Positions 6,790 through 43,309 of a DNA stretch of 64,000 nt are shown here, piece by piece (the first letter of the stretch is position 1; each line of letters starts with the position of its first letter). The notes below the pieces were generated by a model. The model ran no database searches. It was not told where the DNA came from and worked only from the letters and a program-made list of their open reading frames with translations. Source of the DNA: an uncultured Verrucomicrobiae bacterium (GTDB lineage Bacteria > Verrucomicrobiota > Verrucomicrobiia > Limisphaerales > Palsa-1400); assembly GCA_963707025.1 (NCBI GenBank), contig CAVPOM010000004.1, positions 32,001 to 96,000 of the forward strand. The letters are read 5' to 3'. Position numbers and translations under genes: made by a program.

Positions 6790-9700
6790 ATGAAAATGAA
6801 AATGTCGGTGCGGAAGCCGCTTGCTTTGGTTGCCAGCGGCTTGTTTTTATACGCCTTGAACCTGCACGGGCAGAGCGCCCCCGGCATCACCACCCAACCG
6901 CAAGGGCAATTCGCAACGAACGGACAACCGGCCGGCTTTAGCGTGGGCGCAAGCGGCGCCAGCCCGCTTCACTATCAGTGGCAATGGAATGGCGTGGCGC
7001 TGGCCGGAGCGACCAGTTCAAGCCTGGCGCTGACCGCGGTTACGAACGCGGGCAACATCACGGTCGTCGTCACCAACAGCGCGGGCAGCGTGACGAGCAG
7101 CGTGGCTGGGTTGGTCTTGATCGCGCCGCGAGCTTTGGCGGTGCTTCACACTTTCGGCTCGGTTGGGGACGGCGCCTGCCCGGATGGCCTGGTCTCATCA
7201 TCAAACTTGCTTTACGGGACTACTTACAGCGGAGGGATCTATGATGGCGGGTCGGTCTTTGCGGTGTACCCCGACGGCACCGATTACACCTTGCCTTACC
7301 AATTCACCGGAGGCACGGACGGTGGCAACCCACAGATTGGGTTGGCCATTGGGGATATTTGGAACGGCAACTCCGCCATCTATGGCACAGCGGCCAGCGG
7401 CGGCGCTGGCGGAGGCACCGTCTTTGCGGTCAATGGCAGCCACTCCGGGCAACTTTCAGGTCTGAAGGAGCTGACCGGTGTTCTGGGTTGGGGGGGTGGT
7501 GTTGTGAATTCCGTGTTTGGCTTCAATTATAGCGCCCTCCATATCCAGTTCGACGTGCTGGATGGCTTCACAGGCGGCTCCGATGGAGCCGGTCCGCAAG
7601 GGGGCTTGATCGAGTCAGGCGCCACGTTTTACGGGACAACGGGGCAGGGCGGATCCAGCGGCTACGGGACGGTGTATGCGGTGAACGACGATGCCAGTGG
7701 TTTCAGCACCCTCTACTCGTTCACCAACGGCGTGGACGGAGCCAGCCCGGAAGCCGGCTTGATTTTGGCGGGCACCACGCTCTACGGGACAACCTCGTCC
7801 GGCGGCGCAAACGCTCTGGGCACAGTGTTTTCAATCAATGCCAATGGAAGCGGTTTCAAAGCACTCCATACGTTCACCGGCGGTGGCGACGGGGCCAGCC
7901 CGCAGGCGGGATTGGTTTTGGGCAGGAATGTTTTATATGGGACAACCTCGTATGGCGGCGCCAGCGGTTGCGGGACGGTGTTTGCCGTCCATACCGACGG
8001 CACCGGATTCAAGACTCTTTATGCCTTCTCGGGCGGTCTGGACGGGGCCAATCCGGAAGCGGGATTGACCCTGGCGGGCGACACGCTCTACGGAACGGCG
8101 CGGTTTGGCGGCAACAACAACAACGGGACCGTGTTTTCCCTGGCCACGAACGGCGGCCTCATCGTGCTCTATGCCTTTACGGGTGGCGCCGATGGCGCGA
8201 ATCCCCCGCAGTCGGGTCTGATCGTGTCCGGCAACACCCTTTACGGTGTTGCCCAGGGCGGCGGCGCGAATCTGGCGGGGACGCTGTTCCGTCTTTCCCC
8301 GCTCGTCGAGATAATCCAGCAACCGGCGGGCGCCACCGTTTCCAGTGGTAGCGCGGCGTCCTTGACGGTCGTGGCCGCCGGCGTTCCACCGTTGGCCTAT
8401 CAATGGTGGTTTAACAGCAGTGCGATTGCGGGCGCCACCAACGCGAGTCTGACTCTGGCGGCGGCGGGAGCGAATAATACCGGCAGCTACATGGTGGTTG
8501 CCACCAACGCCTACGGAAGCGCGACCAGCAGCAACGGAGTGTTGACGGTGATTTCGGGGCTGCCGTCCATTGCCGCCCAGCCAGCCAGCGCGGTGGCGGG
8601 CCTGGGGCAGCCGGCGCAGTTTGGAGTCACCGCCTATGGCACCTGGCCGCTGGGCTACCAATGGCAGTTTAACGGCGGAGCGCTGGCGGGGGCGAACGGT
8701 TCGACCTTGAGTATTCCATCGGCCGCGGCCACGAACGCCGGAAGTTACAGCGTGATCATCAGCAACGACTTTGGCGCGGTGACCAGTTCTGTGGCGGCAT
8801 TGGCGGTGTACTCCGCGCCCGCCATCACGGTCCAGCCGCAAGGGGTGATGGTCTTGAACGGTTTGCCGGCGGAATTCGCCGTTTCGGTTTGCGGGGCCAT
8901 GCCGCTGGGCTGGCAATGGTTCTTGAACGGCAGCGCGCTGGATGGCGGCACCAATACAATGCTCAGCGTGCCGGACGTGACCTCGAGTGATGCTGGCTCT
9001 TACACGGTGGTGGTGAGCAATGCCTACGGAAGCGTCACCAGCAGCATTGCGGCTTTGACGATTGATCTGCCTCCCACGATTTTGGTTCCGCCGCAGAACC
9101 TGGTGGCCAACGCCGGTGAGACCGCGGCATTCAGTGTCAGTGCCTGCGGCACGGCGCCGCTGAGTTACACCTGGCTGTGCAATGGGGTTCCATTGGCAGG
9201 CGCCACCAATTCTGTCCTGACGCTGCAAGTGTCAACCAACAGCCCCGGCAATTACAGCGTGGTGGTCACCAACAACTGCGGCAGTGCGGCCAGCAGCGCG
9301 GCCATGTTGCTGGTGGAAGAGCCGCTGGCCTGTACCGTGCTGCATCCATTCGGGGTTGGCTGGGATGGCAACGGACCAAACTGCGGCCTGGTGTTGGGGG
9401 GGGGCCTCCTTTACGGCACAACGACAGAGGGGGGGACCAATAACGCCGGCACGGTGTTTTCCGCGAGCACCAGCGGCGGCAATTGCACGGTGCTCTACAG
9501 TTTCACCGGTGGGGCGGATGGAGCCAATCCTTACGGCCATCTGGTGCTCTCCGGCAATACGCTCTACGGAACCGCCTCGGGCGGCGGAGCCAACGGCAAT
9601 GGCTCGGTTTTTGCAATCCACACCAACGGCACCGGCTTCACCGTGCTCCATTCCTTTAACGGTGATGATGGCGCCAGCCCTCTGGCGGGCCTGGTCTTGT

Positions 9701-29203: not shown

Positions 29204-31540
29204 ATGAGCGCAGACCCAACCCAGCCCCAGCCGCAATCGGAAACACCGGCGCTGCCGGATTGGCCCAACTGCCTCTGCCTGAGCCTGCTGGCGGCGCTGA
29301 CCCTGGCCGTATTTTCGGAGGTGCTCCTGGTCAGGCCCGGCGAGGTGCTCTCGGACGGGCAGATGGACCTGGGCTATTTTTTTGTCCACTGGCGCTATTT
29401 TGGATTTCATGAATTGAAAATGGGGAATTTGGCGCTGTGGAATCCGCACTGCCTGAGCGGCACGCCGTTTTTCGGGAACTTCCAGTCGGCTTTGCTCTAT
29501 CCGCTGAATTTTCTTTATTTGCTGCTGCCGTTGCAGGCCGCCATCAACTGGAGCATCGCCTTGCATGTGTTTCTGGGGGGCGCGTTCACGTTTTATTGGA
29601 TGCGTCACCGCGGATTGCATTCCCTGGCCTGCCTGCTTTCGGGGGTGATGTTCATGTTGTGCGGTCCGCATTTTTTGCAGGTTCATGCCGGGCATTTGCC
29701 CAACCTTTGCACGCTGATCTGGGCGCCGCTGTTGTTCCTGGCCATGGACCAAATGCTGGACCGGCCCGGCCTGGCCCCGTGCCTGACCGGCATGTTTGCG
29801 GTGGCCATGTCGGTTTTGGCCGGGCATCCCCAGTTCGTCTTTTACATGGGTGTGGCTGCCGGCGTTTATGCCGTTTTGATTCTCCTCCGCCACCGGCCGG
29901 GCGGGAAAGTGATTTTGGGGCTGGCGGCGATGGCGGCGGGCGGGATCGCCTTGAGCGCCGTCCAACTTTTCACCGGCTTGCAGGAAGGAGGCGAGACGAT
30001 GCGGAGCGTCGGGATGTCGTATGATTTCGCCTCCAGTTTTTCCTTTCCCCCGGAGAACTTTCTCACGCTGGTGGCGCCGTGGTGCTTTGGGGACATGAAA
30101 AACGACCTGTATTGGGGCCGGTGGGCTTTGACGGAGGTGTCCCTTTTCGTCAGCGTGACGGGCCTGGTGCTGGCGGTGCAGGGCATGGCGCGGGGACGGC
30201 CGGCCACGCGGCGGTTTTTAATTGTCCTGCTGGTCATGGCGCTGGTGCTGGCGCTGGGCCGCTACACTCCGGTGTTTCGCCTGCTCTTCGATTATGTGCC
30301 GGGTTTCAACGTTTTCCGCGGCATGGATAAATTCCTCTGGCTGGCGGCTCTGTTTCTGGCGGCACTGGCGGGGATTGGCCTGGACCAGATGCTGCGGGGA
30401 CAGGCGGTGGCGCGCTGGCTGATTTGGGGAGCGGCCGGGGCGGGATTGGCGCTGTGCTTGCTGGCCTTTTTGCCGGCCCACGCCGCCTGGTGGGGCCGCA
30501 TGCTCCAAGGGATGCATCCGGAGGGATCGGTCAACCTGCCGGAAGGATATTACAAAGACCCGCTCTTCATTTTGCACAGCCAATCCCAGGCCTCCTGGAG
30601 CCTGGTGCGGGGCGGCATTTCCCTGTTCCTGGCCAGCGCGCTTCTGGCCCAGGTCAAACCGCGCCGCCGCCTGGCGTGCGGGGCCTTGCTGCTGCTGGCC
30701 GTGATCGAACTGGCCGATTTCGCCGGGACCTCGCTGGTGACGTTCCGAATCAGCGCGCCCTATGCCCCCGCCGTGGCGCAGTTCCTGGCCCAACACCCCG
30801 GCGACTATCGCATCCGCCACTACAACCCCAACAGCGCCATGACGACCGGGGCCTTGGATGTTTCCGGCGATGATCCGGCGGGGCTGACGCGCTATATGCG
30901 GCTGCTCTATTTTTCCGCGGGCATTGACTTCGACAAGGCCCAGCGCGGCAACTTCGCCCAAGAACCCAATACCAATGTCCTGCGCATGTTGCGCCTGCGC
31001 TATCTTTTTTCGGACGATGAAAAGACTTGCACGGAGCTGGCGGGCGGATTGCCGCATTTGTTGCTGGTGGACCGGTTTCGGCTGATGACCAATTACCATG
31101 AGATTTTTTCCACCCTGACCAATGAGAATTTCAAGATGGAGGAAGAGGTGATTCTGGAAAGCCGGCCCTCGCCGCTGCCGCAGCCGGCCCGTGAAAAGGG
31201 AACGGCGCGGCTGCTGGAATCCTCCACCGACTCCCTTAAAATCGAGGCGGAAGTGGGGGCGCCCGCGCTGTTGCTGATCACCGACTCCTACAGCCGCGGC
31301 TGGCGCGCCCTGGCGCTGCCGGGCAGCACGCAAGCCCGCTACGAGGTGATGCCGGCCAACTATTGTTTGCGGGTGATTCCGCTGGCGGCGGGGCGCCATT
31401 TGTTGCGGGTCGAGTATTCGCCGTCCGGCTTTCGCGTGGGGAAAGTGGTTTCCATCGTGGCCTTGGCCGTGTTTTTTGTCCTGCTGGCGATGGTGGTGAA
31501 AAATCGTTTTTGGGATGGGAAGGAGCTGGCTCCCGGGTAA
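29204..31540 (+). CDS. YfhO-like multi-pass membrane protein (GT-C-like)
   Basis: LWNPHCLSGTPFFGNFQSALLYP, GHPQ, many TM helices, C-terminal DSYSRGWRA..ANY..G.H. Confidence 0.8.
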   Translation: MSADPTQPQPQSETPALPDWPNCLCLSLLAALTLAVFSEVLLVRPGEVLSDGQMDLGYFFVHWRYFGFHELKMGNLALWNPHCLSGTPFFGNFQSALLYPLNFLYLLLPLQAAINWSIALHVFLGGAFTFYWMRHRGLHSLACLLSGVMFMLCGPHFLQVHAGHLPNLCTLIWAPLLFLAMDQMLDRPGLAPCLTGMFAVAMSVLAGHPQFVFYMGVAAGVYAVLILLRHRPGGKVILGLAAMAAGGIALSAVQLFTGLQEGGETMRSVGMSYDFASSFSFPPENFLTLVAPWCFGDMKNDLYWGRWALTEVSLFVSVTGLVLAVQGMARGRPATRRFLIVLLVMALVLALGRYTPVFRLLFDYVPGFNVFRGMDKFLWLAALFLAALAGIGLDQMLRGQAVARWLIWGAAGAGLALCLLAFLPAHAAWWGRMLQGMHPEGSVNLPEGYYKDPLFILHSQSQASWSLVRGGISLFLASALLAQVKPRRRLACGALLLLAVIELADFAGTSLVTFRISAPYAPAVAQFLAQHPGDYRIRHYNPNSAMTTGALDVSGDDPAGLTRYMRLLYFSAGIDFDKAQRGNFAQEPNTNVLRMLRLRYLFSDDEKTCTELAGGLPHLLLVDRFRLMTNYHEIFSTLTNENFKMEEEVILESRPSPLPQPAREKGTARLLESSTDSLKIEAEVGAPALLLITDSYSRGWRALALPGSTQARYEVMPANYCLRVIPLAAGRHLLRVEYSPSGFRVGKVVSIVALAVFFVLLAMVVKNRFWDGKELAPG

Positions 31541-31641
31541 GGAGAGGGCGATTTTCCGCGGAAAGCCGCCGGGTCTTTTTTGTGTTTTTTTGGTGTTGCA
31601 AGTGGTCAGGGTTGCATTATTGTCTTCCATCTTAATCGGAA

Positions 31642-31718
31642 GCGAGCGTAGCTCAGCCTGGTAGAGCATCACGTTGCCAACGTGAGTGTCGAGGGTTCGA
31701 ATCCCTTCGCTCGCTCCA
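31642..31718 (+). tRNA. tRNA-Gly(GCC)
   Basis: Cloverleaf: acceptor GCGAGCG/CGCTCGC, anticodon loop TT-GCC-AA, T-loop GGTTCGAAT, CCA end. Confidence 0.97.
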
Positions 31719-32958
31719 TTTGCCCATTTGCGTCAGCGTGCGACAGACCGCGCCAAAGCCCCTCATTTACAAGCACTTGCGCGGGCTTTGCCTCTTCAAT
31801 CATTGCGACAGCTTGCGACCCGTTTTGACCCGCCGCGCCTAAAATCTGTGCGCGTCCTTGTGTATACCCCAACATCGGAGGCAATCCCTTGACAGCCTCG
31901 TAAATCTCAAATTGCGACCCATCCGTGTAACCGTCTGTCTGGTGCAGTGTTTGATGACGCATTTGCTTTCTCGCAAAATTATCGGAAATGCCGTGCTTGC
32001 GCATGAAAGTCGCGCAGGTGTAGCGCAGCGCATGAAAGTCGGCATACCGGCCTTGCTCATCCCGGTAGGCAACGCCAACCCGCTCCGAATCCACTTTGAG
32101 CCGGGAGGCACGAGGAATTCCATTGCGGAAAACCAAATCCGACGGCGACCACTGCGCCGGGCGAAAGTCTTTCAATGCCCCGACGATTTCAGGCATCAGG
32201 AAAACAGGCTCTTCTCTTTTGTTCTTTGCCGTTTCCGCACGAACCACGATCAGCGGATTTTGCGCGTCAAGCCGGACATCGCCCCATTGAAGCTGTTTCA
32301 GTTCTTCCTGCCGCAATCCCGTTGCCGCCGCAGTGAAATAAATTATCCCGCGCGGCCCCGACCCCGCGATCAGTTTGCGCAATTCCTCATCCGTGAATGC
32401 GCGGCGCACCCGTTTCTTCTTCCCGCGCTCATCCACCTTGCCGACGAATTTCAGCGGGTTGGACTTGATCCGCCCCGCCCGCTCCATCCAGTTGAGGAAC
32501 GAAATCGTACCCTGCAAATAATGGTTCATTGTCCGCGCCGCCGCTTTCTGCTTGTTGCGCCAGGCGATGAATGAATCCGCCGTGACATTGCCGGCCAGCT
32601 TCCAGCCGCAATCGTCCAGGAGCCGGAGAATCCGCGCCTTGAGCAACCGCGCCCCGCGCCCACCCCGACCAGCCCGCCCGCGCGTCAGCAGATCAGCTTC
32701 GTAATCGTTCAAATGCTCGCGCAATGGGCGTTGCGCGGCGTCTCTCACAAGTTTTGGCTCGATGATGCCCGCCGCCTCACGCTCGCGCTCCTGGATGAAA
32801 GCGTGCGCCTTTTTGTCGGCAACCTGGAAGTCGGTGACGCCAAGCGACACCCACTTGTCCACCGGCATGTCGCCCAGGCGATAACGCAAATAATAAAACC
32901 GTGTTTCCAGAAGTTTTCCACGCCGCCGAGACCGTCGTTTTTCAATGGAGAAGATCAT
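31669..32958 (-). CDS. Tyrosine recombinase/integrase whose C-terminus crosses attL
   Basis: TGLRQEEL (R), AKNK (K), FHALR (HxxR), MRH (H), DGYT (Y); last 16 codons are antisense to the tRNA. Confidence 0.93.
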   Translation of the reverse strand: MIFSIEKRRSRRRGKLLETRFYYLRYRLGDMPVDKWVSLGVTDFQVADKKAHAFIQEREREAAGIIEPKLVRDAAQRPLREHLNDYEADLLTRGRAGRGGRGARLLKARILRLLDDCGWKLAGNVTADSFIAWRNKQKAAARTMNHYLQGTISFLNWMERAGRIKSNPLKFVGKVDERGKKKRVRRAFTDEELRKLIAGSGPRGIIYFTAAATGLRQEELKQLQWGDVRLDAQNPLIVVRAETAKNKREEPVFLMPEIVGALKDFRPAQWSPSDLVFRNGIPRASRLKVDSERVGVAYRDEQGRYADFHALRYTCATFMRKHGISDNFARKQMRHQTLHQTDGYTDGSQFEIYEAVKGLPPMLGYTQGRAQILGAAGQNGSQAVAMIEEAKPAQVLVNEGLWRGLSHADANGQMERAKGFEPSTLTLAT

Positions 32959-33161
32959 GCCGCTCCTTTCATCATAATTTGCTCAATGTCACTTGACCGA
33001 AACCGCACCGCACCGCGGATTTTAACCACCGCCAGTTTCCCCGACGCCACCAGTCTTTCCACGTTGCGGGTGGAACAGGCCAGCAGACGCGCTACTTCTT
33101 TCTTTGTCACCAATCGCAGCGATGCACGGTTAGATTCATTTTCCATATTCTTTCCTCTCAA
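32955..33161 (-). CDS. Excisionase-like HTH (HTH_17/MerR-like) protein
   Basis: LVTKKEVARLLACSTRNVERLVASGKL..VKIRGAVRF; ATGA overlap with int; alternative ATG at 33146. Confidence 0.85.
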   Translation of the reverse strand: MRGKNMENESNRASLRLVTKKEVARLLACSTRNVERLVASGKLAVVKIRGAVRFRSSDIEQIMMKGAA

Positions 33162-33541
33162 GCATCGGAAGCCTCTTGGTCCATCTCCGCGACCTCATCA
33201 TCCGGCATCCCCTTCGTGTAAACGCGGTAAACCGCATTGTTATCCGCCGCCACGCCGTTCTGCGTCAGCCATTCCGCAATTTCCCGGAAGGTGAAGCCCT
33301 TGTCCTTCCGAAGGACGGTAATCGTCTCATGGTAATCTGCAAGCAGCTTCCGGTTGGATTCCTTTTCCGCTTGTTCCAACAGGAAATGCGGCGGTGGGAA
33401 TTCCAGATGCGTAACCACATCACCCGGAGGAGATGCGGCCTTCTGTTCACCTTTTGCGCTCTTATCACTCAGAGAAGCCGCAGGGGATGGCGCGACCGCC
33501 ACGACTTCTTTACCTTTTGATTTGAATTGTTTTTTCTTCAT
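33158..33541 (-). CDS. Hypothetical DNA-binding protein (HTH-like)
   Basis: LRKDKGFTFREIAEWLTQNGV; stop overlaps the next gene's start. Confidence 0.65.
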   Translation of the reverse strand: MKKKQFKSKGKEVVAVAPSPAASLSDKSAKGEQKAASPPGDVVTHLEFPPPHFLLEQAEKESNRKLLADYHETITVLRKDKGFTFREIAEWLTQNGVAADNNAVYRVYTKGMPDDEVAEMDQEASDA

Positions 33542-33547
33542 GCGGGG

Positions 33548-33576
33548 AATCTAAATGAATAAAGTAATTAAAGCAA
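33548..33576 (-). promoter_or_regulatory. Putative leaderless sigma70 promoter of the orf-xis-int operon
   Basis: TTGCTT-17 nt-TAGATT-6 nt-ATG in an AT-rich patch. Confidence 0.6.
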
Positions 33577-33723
33577 GCAATAAAATGAGAAAAAGCAAAA
33601 GCATCCCAAATTGGACCCAAAAACCACAAACCGTGAGGCATTCCCCGCTGAGTTTTCCCGTGTCGTCATCCGGCTTGCTCAAGGCAGGAAGGCCAAGCCG
33701 AACGCCAACACGCGAAAACTCAG

Positions 33724-33825
33724 CCCCGACAAGTGCCTGGTCGTGCCGTCATTGTCCGCAGGATTGCGCCCCGGCTGCCCTCGCAACACTGCGGTCAATG
33801 CCGTCACCGCCAGGGAGGGCTTCGC
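33724..33825 (-). other. Conserved structured non-coding element, copy 2 (candidate single-strand origin or ncRNA)
   Basis: Long imperfect hairpin homologous to 26989-27092. Confidence 0.65.
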
Positions 33826-34242
33826 CAGTTCCGTTCGCGTCGGATTTATTCGGAGTGCCCGCATCACAAGTTCGGGTGCCGTGTCAATTTGAGATTCAGT
33901 TCAGTAAAGGTACGCAATTCAGGGTGAACATTTGCCATCAAATGGTGAGTATTCTCGCGCCTCGTTCACTATTTTTTATGGGTTATGCTGGCGATTCGAT
34001 CAGACGAGGCGTTTAGGATTGTGCCAAACATTACACTTCGTCTCGCATGGTCCCTCCTAATCTCGCGAAGGATGTTGCAGGTTCGCCATGTGACCTTAAC
34101 CCAATTGTTACGGCCAATTTCGGGGTTCTTGCTTGACACGCGCCAAGCCAGTGAAACAATCGGTGCAAGGGCAGGGTAGCTGTCTTAGACAATGAGAAAG
34201 GCATTTGACAGTCCGGCGGTTGGGTATCAGGCCGACACACGG

Positions 34243-34497
34243 CTAACGATGCCTTGCGATTTTGGGTGGCAGCAATTCCCGCACCTCGGCTCTCAGGGCC
34301 TCAGCCAGGATCATCAGTTCCGAATCCGACACGCATCGCAGTTGCGCCTCAATTTTCGAGAGCGTCGCCCGGCTCAACTCCAATCCCAAAACGGAGCATC
34401 GCGCCGCAAACATCTCCTGCGTCAGCTTCATTTGATAACGCAGCCTTCTGACTTGCGGCCCGACGACATTGCGCGGACTTTTTTTTCTTTCTGCCAT
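34243..34497 (-). CDS. XRE family HTH regulator
   Basis: VGPQVRRLR..LTQEMFAAR..LSRATLSKIE. Confidence 0.88.
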   Translation of the reverse strand: MAERKKSPRNVVGPQVRRLRYQMKLTQEMFAARCSVLGLELSRATLSKIEAQLRCVSDSELMILAEALRAEVRELLPPKIARHR

Positions 34498-34623
34498 GCT
34501 CCGATTTTGGAGCGTGACAGTACCGAGAATTGGCGGCGCATTTGCTCCAATTTTGGAGCCACTTTTTGAGGGAGAAATCCAGAGCAAAAACTAGGCAGTC
34601 AACCACAAACAAAAGGACACGAA

Positions 34624-36873
34624 ATGAAAATGAGATTCAGCAGTAATCAATTGAGCATCGGCGGAGCATTGTCGTTATGGCTTTTATTAGTTCCATCTGT
34701 AATCGCCCAACCGACCTTGCCCGACCCCGGAACGAACACCTTCAACCAACCATCCCAAGCGCAAATCGCGGCGGCAGAGGCGGCACAGGCCGCGCAGCAG
34801 GCGTCAAATTACGCAACCTTTTACGCGCCCTGGGTCGTCCAGGATTTGCAGATGGGCGATGGTTCGCAACTGACGGGGGGCGCTCTCCAAATACAAGCGC
34901 AGAGCGATTTGCTGGTTTTGTCCACCAACCTCGCTGTTTTTCAGGCGGCGCAACAAACAGCGGTGACGGCCTATCTCGCCAGCGCCCCCTTTTCCTTCGT
35001 CCAGTCGTGGATTGACACCAATGGCGTCATGAGTTACATTGACCGCATTGATGAAGGTGGAGCGATGGCCATTAAACAAACACATAATCTCGAATCGGCG
35101 CAGACCGTGGGCGCTCAGAAATTATGGCCAGGCGGCAGCACAGGTCTCAATCTTGCAGGAACCAATGTTCTTATGGCGCAATGGGACGGTGGGGATTTGC
35201 TTACCAATCATTCTGAATTTGCAACCAATGGCCAACGGGCTTTCCTGCTTGACGGGCCAAGCGGATACGGAGTCCAAGACCACCCAACGCATGTCGCCGG
35301 AACAATGATGGCATGGGGGGTTAATGCGAGTGCGAAAGGCTTCTCGAATCGGGGCAAGGTTACTGAATCGTATTTCGGCAAAGACCTTGCGGAGATGCCG
35401 CGAGTGGCCGCAACCAACGGGGTGCGCGAAAGCAATCACAGCTACGGTTATACCGGAGGATGGGGAATCATTCAAATTAGTGGAAATTATTACTGGTTGT
35501 GGAACGGCGATGTCGTTGTTAGCACCAGCCAGGATTGGCATTTTGGATTCTACACCGGCGTCTCACAAACTAACGACCAGATCATTTACACGGCGCAAAC
35601 ATATCTGCCAGTTTTTTCGGCTGGAAATGAAAACGGCCCCGGTCAGGACGGCCCGGCCACCCAACCTTTCGGCCATTATGAATACTCGAATGGTGTAGTG
35701 GTGAGTGACACCACGCACGTTCGCCCGTTAAATGACGCGCAAGGCGGATTCAACACTTTGACAGGGTATCAGGTCTCAAAAAACGAGCTTGTGGTTGGCG
35801 CGGTGGGCCAAAACACAAATGGATATACCAGCACGAACAGCGTTACGAATGCCATTTTTTCATCAATGGGGCCGACCGCCGATGGCCGCATCAAACCGGA
35901 TGTGGTTGCCGACGGCGTAAATGTATATTCCACCTATTCGAGCAACACGGCCTCGTATGGCCTGGATTCAGGCACGAGCATGGCTGCGCCCGCCGTGACT
36001 GGTACGCTTGGACTTCTCACCGGATTCTATAATCAGCTTTATCCGACCAACGCCCCGCTGCTTTCCGGCACAAATGCGCCCCTATCTTCAACGCTCCGGG
36101 GCATTCTAATCCACACCGCAGACCAACTCGGCACCAACATTGGGCCAAGCTACATTTATGGATGGGGATTGCTTGACGCGGTAGCCGCCGCCAATTTGAT
36201 CACCAATAATTACGCCAGCGCTTCTCTCGCCCACATTAAGGAAGTCCGGCTAATCAGCGGCGACCATATCGAATTCCCGGTGACGCTGACCAACGGCGTG
36301 CCTTTCCGCGCCACGACTGCTTGGACTGACCCGCCTGGCTCACCCACTGCCGTCAGTGTCAATCCGACCAACCGCATGTTGGTCAACGACCTTGATTTGC
36401 GGGTCATCAGTCCGAACGGAACAACAAATTTCCCTTATGTTTTGAATCGAAATTCGCCCGCGAGCGCGGCGACAAAGGCGGACAACGCGGTGGACAATGT
36501 GGAACAGGTTTACATCCCGACTCCGACCAACGGAACATACACGGTCCGCATCACTCACAAGGGCAATCTTGTGAACGACCACGGCCAGACAAGTTACCAG
36601 AACCTCTCGATAATGCTCTCAGGAAATATCGCGCTTCCCCCGACGACGCCGAATATTTTCTCGATCTATCCGATTACCACGTCCAACACGGTGGCCCTTG
36701 CTTGGTCCTCAGATGTGGGTAGGGTTTATCGCGTGCAATACGTGGACAACATTACCTCCGGTGTCTGGCAAAATGCGACAGGCGAACTGAGCGCAACCAA
36801 GACGAACACGGTGGCGACGATTCCGGTCTCCGGTGTGACCAATCGGTTTTACCGCATCGCTCAGGTTCGATGA
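34624..36873 (+). CDS. Secreted S8 subtilase
   Basis: Signal peptide; WDGG (D), HPTHVAGT (H), SAGN, SGTSMAAP (S); NDLDL..DNVEQV beta-barrel; RFYR tail. Confidence 0.92.
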   Translation: MKMRFSSNQLSIGGALSLWLLLVPSVIAQPTLPDPGTNTFNQPSQAQIAAAEAAQAAQQASNYATFYAPWVVQDLQMGDGSQLTGGALQIQAQSDLLVLSTNLAVFQAAQQTAVTAYLASAPFSFVQSWIDTNGVMSYIDRIDEGGAMAIKQTHNLESAQTVGAQKLWPGGSTGLNLAGTNVLMAQWDGGDLLTNHSEFATNGQRAFLLDGPSGYGVQDHPTHVAGTMMAWGVNASAKGFSNRGKVTESYFGKDLAEMPRVAATNGVRESNHSYGYTGGWGIIQISGNYYWLWNGDVVVSTSQDWHFGFYTGVSQTNDQIIYTAQTYLPVFSAGNENGPGQDGPATQPFGHYEYSNGVVVSDTTHVRPLNDAQGGFNTLTGYQVSKNELVVGAVGQNTNGYTSTNSVTNAIFSSMGPTADGRIKPDVVADGVNVYSTYSSNTASYGLDSGTSMAAPAVTGTLGLLTGFYNQLYPTNAPLLSGTNAPLSSTLRGILIHTADQLGTNIGPSYIYGWGLLDAVAAANLITNNYASASLAHIKEVRLISGDHIEFPVTLTNGVPFRATTAWTDPPGSPTAVSVNPTNRMLVNDLDLRVISPNGTTNFPYVLNRNSPASAATKADNAVDNVEQVYIPTPTNGTYTVRITHKGNLVNDHGQTSYQNLSIMLSGNIALPPTTPNIFSIYPITTSNTVALAWSSDVGRVYRVQYVDNITSGVWQNATGELSATKTNTVATIPVSGVTNRFYRIAQVR

Positions 36874-37766
36874 AAATTGCCCCACCCACCCCGAACGGCC
36901 GGTGTTGGCTTTGGCAGGCACTGGCCGTTTTATCGGCATTGCCGATAATTGGTGAGGCGCACGGAATTATTTATGAACAGTTGCCACCTTCACCCAGCCT
37001 GGGTTTGGTGCAAGATACGAACGGCAACTTCACCGATCCCTTTGCACCGTATGATGCCCAAGGCTTGAGGTTATGGGGCAATGCGGGAACTCCGGCTATT
37101 TACAATCTCGTTTTTAATGGGCAAGCGGCTTTCACTTTCACCTCACAAGACACTGGTTTTGACATTGACCCGATAGGAAGCAACAAAGTGATCGGTGGCT
37201 ATCTTGACAATTTTGGCGCGGCTGGGGCATATCCGCTGTCAGGTGGCGCTTTAATCGGACCGGATACCGGGACCAACTATACTTGGATTGGCCATGACCC
37301 AGTATTGGGGGGATTGGTTCTGGCGACCGAAAGAGACAGTGGCACCATTGGAAGCCCCATTTTATTCACCGGGCCTTTCGCCGGAATAACAGCCGCGTAT
37401 ATTGGACTTCAATTTTACTCTGACAATCAGGTCTATTACGGCTGGGTTCGAGTTGGCGCACCCGCTACCATCAATGGCGGCTGGATTTACGATTATGCGT
37501 ACCAAACTCAACCCAACACACCGATTCTCGCGGGCGCGGTGCCGCTCGCGCCATTAGCGACACCCCACATTGTTCGACCGGGGAATCTCCGGCTTAACTG
37601 GCAATCACAGACCAACATGGCTTATCAGGTGCAATTCAAGGAAGAACTGGATTCACTGTTTTGGACCAATCTGGACCTCACCATCATCGCCACCGCCACC
37701 AATACGTCAGCCGATGTCCCGATGGTCGGCACTTCCAGGTTTTACCGCGTGGTACAAAATCAATGA
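36870..37766 (+). CDS. Secreted hypothetical protein with C-terminal FYR domain
   Basis: Signal peptide; YIGLQF..YYGWVRV..YAYQTQPNTPILAGAVP; RFYRV; ATGA-coupled. Confidence 0.75.
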   Translation: MKIAPPTPNGRCWLWQALAVLSALPIIGEAHGIIYEQLPPSPSLGLVQDTNGNFTDPFAPYDAQGLRLWGNAGTPAIYNLVFNGQAAFTFTSQDTGFDIDPIGSNKVIGGYLDNFGAAGAYPLSGGALIGPDTGTNYTWIGHDPVLGGLVLATERDSGTIGSPILFTGPFAGITAAYIGLQFYSDNQVYYGWVRVGAPATINGGWIYDYAYQTQPNTPILAGAVPLAPLATPHIVRPGNLRLNWQSQTNMAYQVQFKEELDSLFWTNLDLTIIATATNTSADVPMVGTSRFYRVVQNQ

Positions 37767-38734
37767 AGGCAATACCGATTCCGTCTGCAAAACTCATGCG
37801 CGTCATGCTCCTTGCGTTCGGCTGCATTTTCGCGGCGCAGGTGTCGCAGGCGCAGTCCTCGTTTGCCGGGGTTTTACTCGCAGGCAACGGCTCAGGAATC
37901 GTTGCGGGCACCGTCCAACTCAGCGTGAATGGCGGGCAGATAACATTTCAGTCAACCCTCTATGAGCCTTGGGTCACAAACACCACCCTTGCGACGATTT
38001 TGGAAGTGCAGGGCAACCATATCTGCTTTGATCTTGGAACCGGCACACCAGGCACTTGGCCTGTGCAAGAGTTTGTCGGGCCGCTTCCCGGCCTCAGCAC
38101 AGCCCCGGCCCCAAGCGAACGGTTTCCGGGTCTTGAGCAAATGCCGGGGCCACAAACGCTTTCCGCAGGCAGGCGCTTTGCCGGTGCATTCACCGCGTTT
38201 CCTAGTTTGGAGAATGCGTTATTGACCAGCGGCGGAAAAATTTCGCTCCACGTAAGAGGAACGGTGAACGGCATGGAAAACCCGACTGCCGTAGAGGTAT
38301 TGGTAACAACAAGCCCGCGAATCTCCAATCAGTTTGCGGCGATTCTCAGCGCCACTAACGAAATTCCACCCCACACAAGCCCGTATCACGGCACCGGGTC
38401 GTTCACGCTTGAGAGCAATTTCCTCACTTACAATCTGGCCCTGGACGCCGGTTTGCGCCCAACGCACGTAAGTATATTCGGCCCGGCCAGCCCGCCGCCA
38501 AACGAACTGGCACTCGCTGCCGACTCCCCCGGCAATTCCGGTTTCGTGATTTATCGCGGTCAGATCAATCTGACCGGCGCAAAGGTTGAGGAACTCCGGC
38601 GCGGCGAGCTTTATGTCAATGTTTTTACAGCCCTACATCCGCATGGAGAGTTGCGCGGCTCCATTCTTCCGATTCCAATACCCGTCCCAAACGCCCCCGG
38701 CATTCAGCCTGTTATCAGCGTCTCTCCAAAATAG
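37763..38734 (+). CDS. Secreted CHRD-domain protein
   Basis: LSATNEIPP..G.G.F; LYVNVFTALHPHGELRG. Confidence 0.75.
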   Translation: MKAIPIPSAKLMRVMLLAFGCIFAAQVSQAQSSFAGVLLAGNGSGIVAGTVQLSVNGGQITFQSTLYEPWVTNTTLATILEVQGNHICFDLGTGTPGTWPVQEFVGPLPGLSTAPAPSERFPGLEQMPGPQTLSAGRRFAGAFTAFPSLENALLTSGGKISLHVRGTVNGMENPTAVEVLVTTSPRISNQFAAILSATNEIPPHTSPYHGTGSFTLESNFLTYNLALDAGLRPTHVSIFGPASPPPNELALAADSPGNSGFVIYRGQINLTGAKVEELRRGELYVNVFTALHPHGELRGSILPIPIPVPNAPGIQPVISVSPK

Positions 38735-38884
38735 GCCAAGCAGCCGCGCAATGCTTGACCGTCTGCTTGCGGCACACAATTTCCTCACTCACCCGCCGTC
38801 TTCGATAGCGGCCTGTCCCACCGATTCACATCAGGAAACTTGTGAATCTTCCACCCCCGCGCCGTCAGCCATTTCTCCATGCCC

Positions 38885-40288
38885 TTACGCATCGGCCACG
38901 ACCACCGGACGTTCCCATCCGTCAGTAGCGGAAACTCGATCATGCACTCGTCGAGAACCCCGCCTTTTGTTATTCGCCATTATTCCATCTTGCTCACCTC
39001 CTTTCCAAAAATCATCCTGTGTCAGGACGCGCTGCCATGCGGCCTCTCTTTCCAATTCCGCCCGCCGCTTCCCGGACACCTTCTTTTTCGAGTGCCGCAC
39101 ATCCTCCAGTGTCAATTCAGAGACATGCAGCCATAATGGCAGGCGCGTCACCCCGTACAAGGCCACCTGTCGCCCAGGTACCTGCAAATTGTGCATCTTG
39201 ATGGCATCCACCAGAGCGGGGGCCATGCCTTCCTCATCCTCGCGGAAAACCACCGCCGGAAACAGATTCCCAAACCGAAACGCCCATTTCGGCCCGACCA
39301 ACTCCGCAATGTTGTCCTCCGTGATCCTGTTCCCATCCAGATTCAAGACCTCGACACTCTGGCGCACCATCTCCCGCCATAGTTGGCCACCTTGCGTTTT
39401 CTTGTTCCAGCCAAACTTGCAAGCCCACGGCGGACTTCTCATCTTGACCGCGCCAGGCAAATTCGGCCCATATTTGCAGCGAGGCAAAAGGGGTGCTTTT
39501 CTCCAATGCCCCCAATAACTGACCCGGCGCGCACCTTTATCCTCTGGCGTCCGGTTTTGGAAATCCTTCATCATGTATTTCGCGCAATAGCGTCCGGCTG
39601 CTTGCCCATCGCCTTTGACCGGCTGGCTTTCGCACCGACCAAACCCATAGTTTGGAGCATTGACACGAAGCCACTCCCACACTTCGCGCAAAGCCGCATT
39701 TGCTGTGTCATAGACCGGCGGGCGCACCGGCTTTCCGTCTTTCCCTTTCGGCGGGAAACAGGCGTCCCAATCAATGTTGCCCCGGATGTCGCGCTCGAAA
39801 ACGGCGACCAGGTGCGCGTGCATGGTTTGGTCTTTATGGCGCTCCCGCATGGTGATGCCCAACTGGAATTTTCGGGTGAAGGCCGACATGAAGGAATGCA
39901 AGCGCCGTTGGAATTCGTGCCGGTCTTTCACCTTGACAAACTTTCCGTTGTGGAATTCACCGCAGGTGATCGTAATCAAAAGCAAATGTTCCGGGCCGAA
40001 AGTGTCTGCCATCCATGCAACATTGCGCATGAAGGCTTCCATCTGTTTTGGCAGAGTGCCGGGCAGGACCGTCTTAGCTGCTCCATTCTCCTGAGTGGTT
40101 GCAGATGTTTCAGAAGGACAAGGAAGAGGAAGGGGAAGGCCGGGGCGGGCGGCCCTGAAGGGCCGCGCCGCCCCCGGCCTTTCCGCTTCGCCAGTTCGCT
40201 CCACATCTGACCGCAGAACCGGCGAGCAGTGGTGCTCGCTGTCCGGTTCTGCTCGCTCTACTTCGCCGCCGTGCCGCTCCGGTGTCAC
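38885..40288 (-). CDS. HUH-superfamily rolling-circle replication initiator (Rep)
   Basis: Motif I LITIT, motif II ERHKDQTMHAHLV, motif III RYCAKYMMK (YxxKY); GTG start with AAGGGGG SD. Confidence 0.8.
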   Translation of the reverse strand: MTPERHGGEVERAEPDSEHHCSPVLRSDVERTGEAERPGAARPFRAARPGLPLPLPCPSETSATTQENGAAKTVLPGTLPKQMEAFMRNVAWMADTFGPEHLLLITITCGEFHNGKFVKVKDRHEFQRRLHSFMSAFTRKFQLGITMRERHKDQTMHAHLVAVFERDIRGNIDWDACFPPKGKDGKPVRPPVYDTANAALREVWEWLRVNAPNYGFGRCESQPVKGDGQAAGRYCAKYMMKDFQNRTPEDKGARRVSYWGHWRKAPLLPRCKYGPNLPGAVKMRSPPWACKFGWNKKTQGGQLWREMVRQSVEVLNLDGNRITEDNIAELVGPKWAFRFGNLFPAVVFREDEEGMAPALVDAIKMHNLQVPGRQVALYGVTRLPLWLHVSELTLEDVRHSKKKVSGKRRAELEREAAWQRVLTQDDFWKGGEQDGIMANNKRRGSRRVHDRVSATDGWERPVVVADA

Positions 40289-40515
40289 TGGCCCCCTTTA
40301 CTTGTGGCCGTGTCAACAATGGCGAGGATTGCGACCTTGAGCGCGGCAGGTAATTCACCCCAGGCAGCGACTACTTGCGACAGGTTTCGCCAGTCGTTGC
40401 CCTGAATCTGTGCGCGTGGTTGTGTATAGTCCCTTTCACCTTCGTTCGTAACAGGTTGATTTTCGGCAGGTTGTGGATTTTGCGGGGAAGGTTCGAATCC
40501 CTTCGCTCGCTCCAT
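40285..40515 (-). other. Detached integrase C-terminal coding segment, in frame with int across att
   Basis: MERAKGFEP-SPQ...LSQVVAAWGELPAALKVAILAIV...GGQ*; stop overlaps the rep GTG. Confidence 0.75.
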
Positions 40516-40873
40516 CTCCATCAACGACTTACGTCGATGGACATGGTTTTGCAACAGGTTTGCAACATCTCCGCCCCCCCGCCGGCCAAAAACCGGTCCC
40601 GACCCCGGAAGGTCCAAAAACTCGGTAGTGGTACAGTTTGAGGGGTGAGGCGTTACTTTCCACTTGATTCCGCCAGGCAGGGGCGCAAGGTTGCGCCATG
40701 CAAAAACGAGATTTGAATGAAACCGCCTTCGCGGTGGTCCAGCAGGCGACACGGCAGCCCCAAGCCCCAGCAAAACATCCCATCAGAGCCGTATCAGGCG
40801 AAAGGGTCGGGGCCTTAAAACCCGTCAAGCCCGGCAGAGTGAATCGAAAAGCTCGGTAGAAGCTCGGTAGATG

Positions 40874-41338
40874 CTATTTTTCAGGCTCCACTGTGAGCGC
40901 CCAAACAAGGGCAATGACCCAGCCAACACCAGTCCAGCCGAGCAAAAGATTTAAGACGAGTATCGCCATGTGGTTGCGTTTCTTTCGTCCAATGTAGGCA
41001 GGGATGAAATAAATACAAAATGCCACGGCCAACATGACTAGGGTGAGAACCAGGCTGAAAACGAGAGCCATCGTCCGGCCCATTATCATCCCAATCGTTT
41101 CCTCCTCGTCTGATCTGTCAAAAAACGCCCCGCAGAACGCAATCGCGAAAATTGCAGCCACACCCAAAATAGTCCAGGTTTTCTTGGAGATGGGCTTTTT
41201 GGGTAATTCAACGTGGAGCGGTGTGGCCTTTCGGCAATGTGGGCAGACGATGACTATTCCACGCTGATAGTTGGCGGCTTCAAATTCAATTCCGCCTTCG
41301 CAATGGACACACCAAGCTCGCAGCAACGGTTCTGACAT
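40874..41338 (-). CDS. Zn-ribbon plus T4 Imm-like superinfection immunity membrane protein
   Basis: CVHC..CPHC; C-terminal YFIPAYIG..AILVLNLLLGWTGVGWVIALVWA. Confidence 0.8.
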   Translation of the reverse strand: MSEPLLRAWCVHCEGGIEFEAANYQRGIVIVCPHCRKATPLHVELPKKPISKKTWTILGVAAIFAIAFCGAFFDRSDEEETIGMIMGRTMALVFSLVLTLVMLAVAFCIYFIPAYIGRKKRNHMAILVLNLLLGWTGVGWVIALVWALTVEPEK

Positions 41339-41702
41339 AATTCCTTTCGCAAGCGGGAAGGAAAAAGGCGCGGACCCAGCGCACCCGAACGAGGCACTGC
41401 GAAGCGCCTTGAGGAGAATGCGCCGAGCCGCGGGTCTCCTCTGAAATTTCGCAGTTTTCGTTCGACCCTTACCGCTACGCTAAAATATCAATCGCAACTT
41501 TTAATCCCCGCTTTTTTTGAGTCAAGAAATTCCCATCAACAAAATGAAACCTCCAAACCTTACAGTCGCGCAAAAAGCCCAAATTCTTGGCGATCCGTTG
41601 CCCGGCGTCACCGGCGATAAATTGCTTGCCGCTGCCGCAATCCGTCAATATCCTCCCATAATCCGCACCAATCCTCGAATTATTAGGCCGCGGTATGACC
41701 GT

Positions 41703-42476
41703 ATGACGATATTGGCTGGTATAATCTGCAAGAGGTTCATCGTTCTTGGCGCGGACAGCCTATGGACAAATTCCACAGATGGAAGCATGGTCGAGGCTGA
41801 TAAAATCAGCATTGTAAATTTCAACGACGATCAGGTCCTGGTCGGGCAGGCCGGATTAAGGCCCATCACGATGGAGGTCGTGGAAACCTTACGCAAAAAG
41901 GCAAGGGGCAAAAAGATCACAGAACCTCGCGCCGTGACCAAAATTGTCAAGGACGCCATCCGCGAAACAAAAACCTCTTTGGACGAGGCCGCAACAGGCT
42001 TTGGGACAACGCATGGTGCAGCGCTTATGATTGCGTTTTACGCGCAGAACCGGCCCCAGCTTTATATATGCCACCTCTTTAATACTGGCGTCCCAGAACC
42101 AGCGCCGTCGCATTATGCGACTGCGGGCTGCGCCGATCTCCTTGCGAATTATTTTCTTAGGGAGTTTTCTGAACCAGGCGCGGAGGATGAATTGCAACTC
42201 GCGGCTTTGATCTACACCATCGCAAAGGTGAAGGAATATAGCGTGTATTGCGGGGGTCCAACCACTATAAAATATCTGACAACATTTTCGACTGGGCTGG
42301 ATTCTCCGCGTGTTGCAAAGGCAACCGCCCTTGCCCCCGAATTCATCGAGCGGGTCGAGAAGAAATTGGCGTCCGTGGATTTGAACACCAAGAACGCAAG
42401 AAACAGAGAAATATACGCCGCCTTGCGGGAAGCCTCGGATGAATTTGCCAAGGAGAATTGGAAGTCACCAAAATGA
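41703..42476 (+). CDS. Proteasome-beta-like Ntn hydrolase
   Basis: M-T-ILAGI..IVLGADS..ADKI..VGQAG..YATAG..YCGGP; N-terminal Thr after Met removal. Confidence 0.7.
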   Translation: MTILAGIICKRFIVLGADSLWTNSTDGSMVEADKISIVNFNDDQVLVGQAGLRPITMEVVETLRKKARGKKITEPRAVTKIVKDAIRETKTSLDEAATGFGTTHGAALMIAFYAQNRPQLYICHLFNTGVPEPAPSHYATAGCADLLANYFLREFSEPGAEDELQLAALIYTIAKVKEYSVYCGGPTTIKYLTTFSTGLDSPRVAKATALAPEFIERVEKKLASVDLNTKNARNREIYAALREASDEFAKENWKSPK

Positions 42477-43309
42477 ACAAACTGAGCGTGGAGGCACGGG
42501 TGATGATCGTCAGATGTTTAGTGGAGGGCAATTCGCTCCGGTCCACCGTCCGAATGACGGACATTCACCGCACAACGATTCAAAAGCTCTTGGTGGAGCT
42601 TGGTGTGGTCTGTTCCGCATATCAGGACAAGGCTTTTCGCAACCTGAAGTGCAGGCGGTTGCAGTGCGATGAAATTTGGGCATTCGTGGGCTGCAAGCAA
42701 AAGAACACGACGCCGGAAACCCGGATGGTTAAACAATGGGGTGATGTTTGGACTTGGACGGCGATGGACGCGGAAACAAAGCTCGTGCCGTGCTGGTTCG
42801 TCGGCAACCGGGACAGCAGTTCTGCCTATCATTTCATCAACGATCTGGCCGGAAGGCTCGCCAGCCGCATCCAGTTGACCACAGACGGCCATAAGCCTTA
42901 CCTGGAGGCCGTGGAAGGTGCATTTGGGGCGGACATTGATTATGCGCAATTGCAGAAGATTTATGGGGTTCAGGGCGGCCCGAAAGAGAGCGCGGAAGTC
43001 CGGTATAGCCCAGCCCAGTGCATGGGGGCGCGCCGGGCGATCATCTCCGGTCATCCCGATTATGACCACATTTCCACCAGCTTCACGGAGCGTCAAAACC
43101 TCACAATGAGGATGTCCATGCGCCGGTTCACGCGCCTGACCAACGCCTTCTCAAAGAAGGTCGAGAACCATGAGGCGGCGGTGGCTCTCCACTTCATGCA
43201 CTACAATTTCGCCAGGATTCACATGTCGCTTCGCGTCACCCCTGCGATGGAGGCCGGCGTGGCCGATCACGTTTGGAGCGTCGAGGAAATTATCCGCCTT
43301 TTAGGGTGA
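42473..43309 (+). CDS. IS1-family DDE transposase
   Basis: LVEGNSLRS HTH, QCDEIW, TTDGH, TSFTERQNLTMR, TPAMEAG; ATGA overlap with the Ntn gene. Confidence 0.9.
   Translation: MNKLSVEARVMIVRCLVEGNSLRSTVRMTDIHRTTIQKLLVELGVVCSAYQDKAFRNLKCRRLQCDEIWAFVGCKQKNTTPETRMVKQWGDVWTWTAMDAETKLVPCWFVGNRDSSSAYHFINDLAGRLASRIQLTTDGHKPYLEAVEGAFGADIDYAQLQKIYGVQGGPKESAEVRYSPAQCMGARRAIISGHPDYDHISTSFTERQNLTMRMSMRRFTRLTNAFSKKVENHEAAVALHFMHYNFARIHMSLRVTPAMEAGVADHVWSVEEIIRLLG

Follow-up and report, generated by a model that had tools for sequence, protein, structure and literature searches.

In the phage Mx8, the core of the circular-form attachment site (attP) is described as lying inside the 3' coding part of a bacterial integrase gene, with a tRNA gene as the target (PMC6070905, PMC4383910). 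Integration of Mx8, which converts intP to intX, is described as giving this gene a new 3' end while the catalytic domain is kept (PMC6070905, PMC4383910), and the altered 3' end as changing specificity and efficiency rather than abolishing activity (PMC6070905). For Tn916, the account given in PMC5812530 (citing Celli and Trieu-Cuot 1998) is that circularisation puts promoterless genes of the far end behind the xis-int transcript, and that these genes are expressed only after excision. The tRNA-integrating actinomycete integrative and conjugative element (AICE) pSAM2 is described as having a co-regulated rep-xis-int operon with a rolling-circle Rep (PMC2440964), and the 'suicidal' integrases of SSV1, pTN3 and pT26-2 are described as carrying the attachment (att) site in the open reading frame (ORF) (PMC8371274, PMC7253208), which yields inactive N- and C-terminal parts, an arrangement called exclusive to archaea (PMC8371274). 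The present analysis concerns a mobile element of ~8.8 kb in the tRNA-Gly(GCC) gene of a peat Verrucomicrobiota bacterium, which is the sole tRNA gene of the window, the whole 64-kb stretch of contig CAVPOM010000004.1 that was analysed. The element, apparently intact, belongs to a family of small (~2-9 kb) rolling-circle elements of Verrucomicrobiota that integrate into tRNA genes. It is best explained, on a balance that tips only slightly in favour, as an element with attP inside its integrase gene int, in which excision would restore a C-terminal tail of the integrase (Int) and couple the replication gene rep behind int.

The att core, GGTTCGAATCCCTTCGCTCGCTCCA, corresponds to the last 25 bases of the tRNA-Gly gene and occurs in two exact copies in the window (31694-31718 and 40490-40514), where 100 shuffles gave an expectation of 0 for a second exact copy. 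Extended, the repeat matches at 28 of 29 bases (31691-31719 against 40487-40515). The features that carry the argument are the following.

31642-31718, plus strand: tRNA-Gly(GCC), the integration target, its 3' end restored by the element (ARAGORN; Rfam RF00005, 67.7 bits)
31691-31719, no strand assigned: attL core, 25-26 bp exact and 28/29 with flank, in which Int reads MERAKGFEP
40487-40515, no strand assigned: attR core, a repeat of the attL core
31669-32958, minus strand: Int, a tyrosine integrase of 429 aa in the short form of the integrated state (PF00589, E 2e-12)
32955-33161, minus strand: xis, an excisionase-like helix-turn-helix (HTH) protein (PF12728 HTH_17, E 1e-9; PHROG excisionase families), with a 4-nt overlap with int
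33158-33541, minus strand: orf127, without a known family, which heads the overlapping chain orf127-xis-int
40285-40515, minus strand: detached Int tail containing the core, the 24-nt site and a conserved domain (DLxxVVAAWxxLxxxLKAAILAIV), with a stop that overlaps the rep GTG
38885-40288, minus strand: HUH rolling-circle Rep, 467 aa, with HAHLV and YCAKY, open from the GTG at 40288
31843-31866, minus strand: first copy of the 24-nt site, TATACACAAGGACGCGCACAGATT, in the int linker, coding YTQGRAQI; candidate arm-type site on the P' side
40405-40428, minus strand: second copy of the 24-nt site, TATACACAACCACGCGCACAGATT, in the tail, coding YTQPRAQI
40213-40252, minus strand: 40-nt hairpin in the 5' end of the rep ORF, near-invariant, with 9-bp and 7-bp stems, a 4-nt bulge and the loop CCAC
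33641-33831, minus strand: structured non-coding element of ~190 nt with two long hairpins, upstream of orf127-xis-int

Int matches PF00589 with 47.7 bits against a gathering score of 27.1, and the residues R216, H309, R312, H335 and Y344, which we take to be the catalytic R, H-x-x-R, H and Y, are invariant in an alignment of 50 sequences (A6). The core lies inside the int ORF, downstream of the catalytic tyrosine and starting ~70 codons past Y344, and the integrated protein retains the whole catalytic domain, with MERAKGFEPSTLTLAT as its C-terminus. From the core, Int reads MERAKGFEP and stops seven codons on, the last seven residues (STLTLAT) being tRNA antisense. At attR, translation of 40285-40515 on the minus strand gives MERAKGFEPS and the tail (76 aa, made up of 9 aa and 67 aa), in the same phase relative to the core as Int. 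The 467-aa ORF at 38885-40288 on the minus strand opens with a GTG (40286-40288) that overlaps the tail TGA (40285-40287), and the orf127/xis and xis/int junctions are both 4-nt overlaps.

Much of this anatomy had been proposed in an initial annotation of the same DNA. The placement of the att core in the frame of a 429-aa Int ending MERAKGFEP-STLTLAT is confirmed by the repeat and the translation, the continuation of that frame for 67 aa at attR by the translation of 40285-40515 in the same phase, the overlap of the tail TGA with the GTG of an HUH Rep by the presence of HAHLV and YCAKY in the 467-aa ORF, and the 4-nt overlaps of orf-xis and xis-int by the ORF coordinates. The reported absence of capsid and conjugation genes also holds, as the Pfam scan of the eight ORFs inside the element returned no such family; it likewise returned no FtsK-like transfer gene and no match to PF16795, int, xis and rep being present.

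Int homologues numbered 365 at E <= 0.001, and most of the best 120 are 429-430 aa long and end in tRNA antisense. Eighteen homologues were fetched, one of which (P0117) is a natural Int of 490 aa that runs past MERAKGFEPS into ...YTQIRAQDSG...ELAEVVQAWPSLSQPLKAAILAIV..., the remaining long homologues among the 18 being extended merely into tRNA or flanking sequence. A full HMMER scan with the 76-aa tail retrieved 96 cluster representatives, 18 of them at E <= 1e-10, and nearly all are ORFs of 43-200 aa that begin at or just before the core; in two long outliers the match is limited to short low-complexity stretches. The tail consensus, MERAKGFEPS..YTQIRAQI......DL..VVAAW..L...LKAAILAIV, ends in a block (DL..VVAAW..L...LKAAILAIV) that is almost without entropy at the first two codon positions and has 0.9-1.7 bits at the third, across a set of 29 distinct tail DNAs that came from loci in metagenomes and genomes, the genome of the window included. 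The tail loci were collected via a neighbouring 21-nt motif, the invariance of which in that set is by design. The codon-position pattern of the tail is a signature of selection on protein, and on this comparative evidence the tail is a real coding domain.

The tail has no match in PHROGs; in the Atlas it neighbours unnamed proteins of 67-81 aa, most of them from Planctomycetota. A word-based search for longer tail proteins found one attR-type ORF only. Prediction of the Int body and the tail as two chains gave a score of 0.00 with an uncertain tail fold, and the addition of tails to the Int alignment with MAFFT set tails and fragments on the wrong part of Int (A3, which was checked, and A4, judged by low identities and N-terminal invariant columns).

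Besides the window element at tRNA-Gly, two further complete elements lie in its genome (G000; 6.96 Mb in 18 contigs), one at tRNA-Pro and one at tRNA-Asp, with Ints that are 35-40% identical to the window Int. The Int phase passes through the core into the tail without a stop in all three, and this shared phase is not forced, since the core is open in all three frames. The tail was also found in 26 genomes of a phylum sample of 401, own genome included, at 39 places that all lie in open frames of 67-211 aa, save one of 499 aa. In this 499-aa ORF (G075, tRNA-Met), the Int frame continues past the core and takes in the tail of a minimal element next to it. The locus (L165, G075:C20:112000-128000, at 7371-10314) carries two tandem integrase genes by tRNA-Met, the first being that of 499 aa, and the minimal element seems to consist of tail and int alone. 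A long Int can therefore also come from tandem arrays, and P0117 may be the product of such an array rather than of a circle. Another locus, L011, was considered as a contiguous long Int and rejected as a scrambled tandem array. Single metagenomic sites numbered 80, comprising ~30 int-side sites with the core 50 codons downstream, 33 tail-side sites and a rest that is degenerate or due to chance; the core is read upstream in the Int frame at 25 of the 33 tail-side sites. In-frame conservation of the tail across att in homologues, a check proposed with the initial annotation, is thus seen in the three elements of the own genome, the G075 ORF and P0117. The predicted Int of 489 aa after excision is supported in that the tail is, by comparison, in frame and under selection, and is not supported by any sighting of the circular form.

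Some of these data could be accommodated if tail and rep were a self-contained module under a promoter of their own, in which the tail is a free protein of ~70 aa (for example a Rep accessory factor or copy-number regulator) and the frame it shares with Int has no role. The window core indeed offers an ATG (MERAKG...), short tail ORFs are called in 96 clusters, the tRNA-Pro element (TTG, -3) and the tRNA-Asp element (ATG, -2 and -6) have start codons shortly before the core, and rep leaders exist without Int tails. Such a module is nevertheless unlikely, given that the same phase recurs unforced in 3/3 elements, in G075 and at 25 metagenomic sites, that the cores of the tRNA-Pro and tRNA-Asp elements contain no start codon, that rep-less elements of tail and int retain the tail, and that no sigma-70-like minus-strand site was found near attR (40200-41000). 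Comparison within the family instead shows, at the level of predicted products, that integration would replace a C-terminal domain under selection by a handful of residues read from tRNA antisense, attP lying after the catalytic residues. The tail is, as far as the loci compared indicate, joinable to Int only by excision or by a tandem array.

Both sides of the core also carry a 24-nt sequence, TATACACAAnnnCGCGCACAGATT, in the int linker (31843-31866) and in the tail (40405-40428). The two sites are 234 nt apart in the predicted attP, and their spacing in P0117 is identical. A degenerate codon-level search found six copies in four elements, all six identical at 21 of 24 bases with zero synonymous change, in surrounding proteins that are 55-70% identical. 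These copies are probably DNA sites within coding sequence and are candidate arm-type Int sites. Shared words of their own, ~140 nt before and ~50 nt after the core, are present in the tRNA-Asp and tRNA-Pro elements; that of the tRNA-Pro element is a 9-mer and possibly due to chance.

The link between tail and rep extends beyond the window. A match to the Rep HMM lies downstream of the tail, within 2.6 kb and on the same strand, at 17 of the 33 metagenomic tail-side sites, four of which have <400 nt of downstream sequence. Tail stops form ATGA or GTGA in 29 of 32 cases and in 10 of 12 distinct tail-end types, where chance would give ~1/3. At loci from genomes of other families in the phylum, Rep stands directly behind the tail in four of nine, with the stop/start overlap in three of these four. 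Tails upstream of a Rep, for which the initial annotation had suggested a search, therefore exist in both sets; ORFs behind tails that lack a Rep match have a mostly non-coding appearance, L097, a possible further Rep type, excepted. The proposal of a coupled orf-xis-int-rep operon is accordingly sustained by the conserved stop/start overlap of tail and rep and not by the searches for a circular form and a promoter, which found neither. Only attP, on the arrangement compared here, would put rep behind int. Naturally fused forms were also observed: the tail is fused in frame to Rep through a deletion at a shared AAV word in L030, it is frameshifted into the Rep leader in P0153, and P0225 is a single protein with HTH_17 and Rep domains.

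Residues H75, H77, Y152, Y156 and K159 are invariant in an alignment of 14 Reps, 13 of which match PF23343 (REP_ORF2-G2P) at E <= 0.01, the best being P0153 (E 7.2e-13, 49.1 bits); the window Rep itself reaches 21.7-22.2 bits, below the cut-off of 27.8. Two of the 14 match Phage_GPA and one weakly matches RepSA (PF20199, E 0.0023). No solved structure matches the Rep by sequence, and tblastn of the Rep against 50,697 phage records gave no match. Gene callers begin close Rep homologues at the ATG at 40042, upstream of which lies a conserved block, LPGxxxKQxEA, indicating that translation of Rep starts further upstream, where two GTG codons, one at 40288 and one just past the hairpin, are the sole candidates.

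The first 32-37 codons of the window Rep ORF recur at 11 of 13 genome loci regardless of Rep type, owing to the 40-nt hairpin at 40213-40252. This hairpin is 96-98% identical across loci whose Reps are 25-55% identical, and the few variants preserve the stems. It occurs 24 times in the own genome and 13 peat metagenome-assembled genome loci (L001-L013), window copy included. Half of the copies (12/24) precede an HUH ORF of at least 271 aa, and in all 12 this ORF is in the hairpin frame and stop-free, across five HUH variants with linkers of 134-177 aa; the others precede one 305-aa ORF without an HUH motif and 11 short ORFs, some of them at contig ends. The hairpin is absent from family members in nine loci of other phylum genomes. 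It is a candidate nick site or origin, or a regulatory structure.

A regulatory structure would agree with a second reading, in which the hairpin and the following GC-rich stretch insulate rep from int (as a terminator, attenuator or processing site), rep is separately controlled, for instance by antisense RNA as in rolling-circle plasmids, and excision alters the Int tail only. The near-identity of the hairpin (96-98%) beside Reps of 25-55% identity suggests a function at the RNA or DNA level that is independent of Rep specificity, a second GC-rich inverted repeat and a pyrimidine-rich run follow ~40 nt downstream, and the stretch lacks third-position bias. Against an insulator stand the 12 of 12 HUH ORFs that continue stop-free in the hairpin frame with linkers of 134-177 aa, the lack of a T-run behind the hairpin, and the members outside the peat clade that lack the hairpin and keep the tail-rep overlap; this reading is improbable.

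Single-strand origins in rolling-circle plasmids are strand-specific, strongly paired elements. A second conserved non-coding element, which has these features, lies at 33641-33831 on the minus strand, 100 nt upstream of orf127. It recurs at ~20 places in the own genome and loci, 80-96% identical over most of its length (one copy being at G000:C4:466375-466565), with shorter partial matches elsewhere, and stands upstream of xis-int, in their orientation, where int shares the contig. Eleven copies share a fold of two long hairpins at -75.2 kcal/mol, in which 11 of the 57 pairs show compensatory changes; for the opposite strand the figures are 45 pairs and -52.4 kcal/mol. The element has no match in Rfam. 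It is a candidate single-strand origin, a role described in PMC2440964, and a leader RNA for the int operon is an equally good fit.

In the reading preferred here, with attP in int, the integrated element would make the 429-aa Int and Xis, which should still excise it. Excision would rebuild attP, Int would regain the conserved C-terminal domain of ~35 aa and reach 489 aa, and the HUH rep would be set directly behind int through the GTGA stop/start overlap, making orf127-xis-int-rep a single transcription and translation unit. Replication origins lie inside gene A of phiX174 and P2, and by analogy with these it is proposed that Rep would start rolling-circle replication with a nick in the circle, the probable position being the hairpin at the 5' end of rep, with the ~190-nt two-hairpin element acting as the single-strand origin. 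We infer the co-transcription across attP, the coupled translation at GTGA, the silence of rep in the integrated state and the roles of the hairpin and the ~190-nt element. A more far-reaching version, offered tentatively, is a hard-wired relay in which Rep would be translated only by ribosomes finishing full-length Int, and in the circle only, the hairpin 32 nt into rep would be the nick site of a cis-acting initiator, integration would disarm both the Int tail and replication, and the tail would set the direction or stability of Int, a design that would be lineage-wide in Verrucomicrobiota and perhaps in Planctomycetota.

Several observations weigh against the coupling of rep to int by excision. 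The two-site attP pattern had no match in JGI metagenome contigs, none of the 80 single metagenomic sites has the attP configuration, and no clean attP joint occurs in the contigs of four sequencing runs (three DNA runs and one RNA run), all of which contain <30% of the words and represent relatives at 90-99% identity, and from which rare forms drop out. Sequences across the attP junction, the first evidence that the initial annotation had called for, are therefore not found in clean form in either source. Its promoter-like site at 33548-33576 is likewise not borne out: a sigma-70 scan found no minus-strand site in 31500-34700, a range that includes the stretch upstream of orf127, and inspection by eye gives TTGCTT-N17-TTAGAT, a weak match below the scan threshold. 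A flank gene at 40874-41338, 360 nt upstream on the same strand, points toward attR with only a weak 5-bp terminator-like stem between, so that read-through into rep is possible in the integrated state. A rep leader without a tail follows an HTH ORF in L006 and, judged from the in-frame translation upstream alone, in C12; in C9, L002 and L013 an AT-rich stretch precedes it. This indicates that rep can be expressed in other contexts. Rep-less minimal elements of tail and int, L064 and G075, retain the tail, which is thus not present solely for rep; L064 (a 2643-bp contig) has tail-side and int-side 21-nt sites 2 kb apart and points to a Rep-less element of ~2.3 kb that still has its tail. Lastly, differences of the window from L001 number 7/5/9 by codon position in the stretch from the hairpin to the internal ATG and 33/28/91 in the rep core; the lack of a clear third-position bias in that stretch argues against its full coding.

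A backward joint from 40523 to 31804 (X1; one contig, 32 letters) was considered as a circle and read as a relative's attL on the attR core. Contigs of the RNA library that cover rep and tail are not evidence of transcription, because DNA may occur in such libraries. An empty site was sought, and the right flank 40516-41500 has no counterpart by tRNA-Gly in 30 relatives beyond a short repeat. Viral contigs contained no relative of P0117, and their one match to the 21-nt motif, on an AT-rich giant-virus contig, is attributed to chance.

That neither a circular form nor an empty site was seen would also be expected if the window copy were a fixed relic that is no longer mobile, its layout being only historical. 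The decay of sister copies (ORFs of 40 and 115 aa behind the hairpins of C2 and C5) points the same way, C13 being cut by a contig end. This is quite doubtful, as int, xis, tail and rep are all open in the window, the att cores differ at 1/29 bases, several peat and soil runs contain contigs that are 95-97% identical, and the P0002-type Int occurs at 95% identity on other contigs. The sister elements themselves (C2:97403-104002 at tRNA-Pro and C5:270106-277631 at tRNA-Asp, both in G000) have Int and tail intact and rep genes that appear to be broken or absent; upstream of the C5 attR, 17 aa remain from the 3' end of another int.

The remainder of the element comprises a regulator and a cargo block.

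34243-34587, minus strand: XRE-type HTH regulator (PF01381, E 2e-7)
34624-38734, plus strand: variable cargo block (Pfam), absent from a relative's contig
34624-36873, plus strand: S8 subtilase (cargo)
36870-37766, plus strand: orf298 (cargo)
37661-38734, plus strand: CHRD-domain protein (cargo)

A relative's contig joins 33696 to 38789 and omits the cargo block, indicating that the cargo is variable. The subtilase looks secreted, and its gene overlaps that of the 298-aa unknown protein by 4 nt. A PHROGs scan of four element ORFs left three without a match, the fourth, xis, matching excisionase families and, weakly and over its HTH domain, a terminase small-subunit family (E 1.5e-5). To the right of attR (40874-43309), a superinfection-immunity domain (PF14373) occurs in a membrane protein, next to genes for a proteasome/HslV-like protein (PF00227) and for an IS1-like transposase. 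These may be left over from other mobile DNA at tRNA-Gly.

If the inferred part is true, the position of attP alone would give two states without a repressor: an integrated state with a short Int, no Rep and an un-nicked chromosome, and an excised state with the full Int and a coupled Rep. The tail swap known from Mx8 would then grow from a phage curiosity to a lineage-wide design tied to replication control. The family offers a natural pair of long and short tyrosine integrases, with candidate arm sites fixed in coding DNA, and the hairpin and the ~190-nt element may serve as both origins of a rolling-circle replicon that is as yet undescribed, in a phylum that is poor in genetic tools.

The open-access full text searched yielded no paper on integrative rolling-circle elements in tRNA genes of Verrucomicrobiota, and none of the open-access papers listed for suicidal integrases or Mx8-type attP describes this layout in its title or the opening of its abstract. 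The principles are nevertheless known from Mx8, Tn916 and pSAM2, and the suggestion in the initial annotation that the int-rep arrangement is not known to be described in bacteria misses these precedents. As judged from sequence comparison, each principle is already known separately, the combination is a family-wide variant, and its anatomy is well supported.

The analogy with SSV1 drawn in the same annotation applies in that the att site lies inside the integrase ORF, as described for the SSV-type elements, and is otherwise loose, since the core is past the catalytic tyrosine and the catalytic domain is whole. The window int is cut after this residue, and, unlike the SSV-type integrases, the integrated Int keeps R, H-x-x-R, H and Y and the whole of PF00589. 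The element resembles pSAM2 and the AICEs, as far as these are described in the source cited, in having int, xis and a rolling-circle rep, and one aligned Rep relative (A2) weakly matches RepSA. It differs in that the rep-xis-int genes of pSAM2 are described as lying on one side of att, in an operon that integration leaves unbroken, and from AICEs also in having no FtsK-like transfer gene among the eight ORFs scanned and in belonging to another host phylum. As in the account of Tn916, excision would join a far-end gene behind xis-int. What is joined here is a replication initiator gene and not an operon for conjugation, and the joining takes place within an ORF, with a stop/start overlap as the link. 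The likeness to Mx8, in the parts of its integration that the sources describe, is that the window core lies in the int ORF after the catalytic tyrosine and that integration swaps the C-terminus. This likeness is one of layout: tblastn of the window Int against the 50,697 phage records gave 38 weak matches, with <30% identity among the 15 listed and no Myxococcus phage. The element in the window differs from Mx8 in being a small rolling-circle element rather than a phage, and in having a detached tail that is followed by rep.

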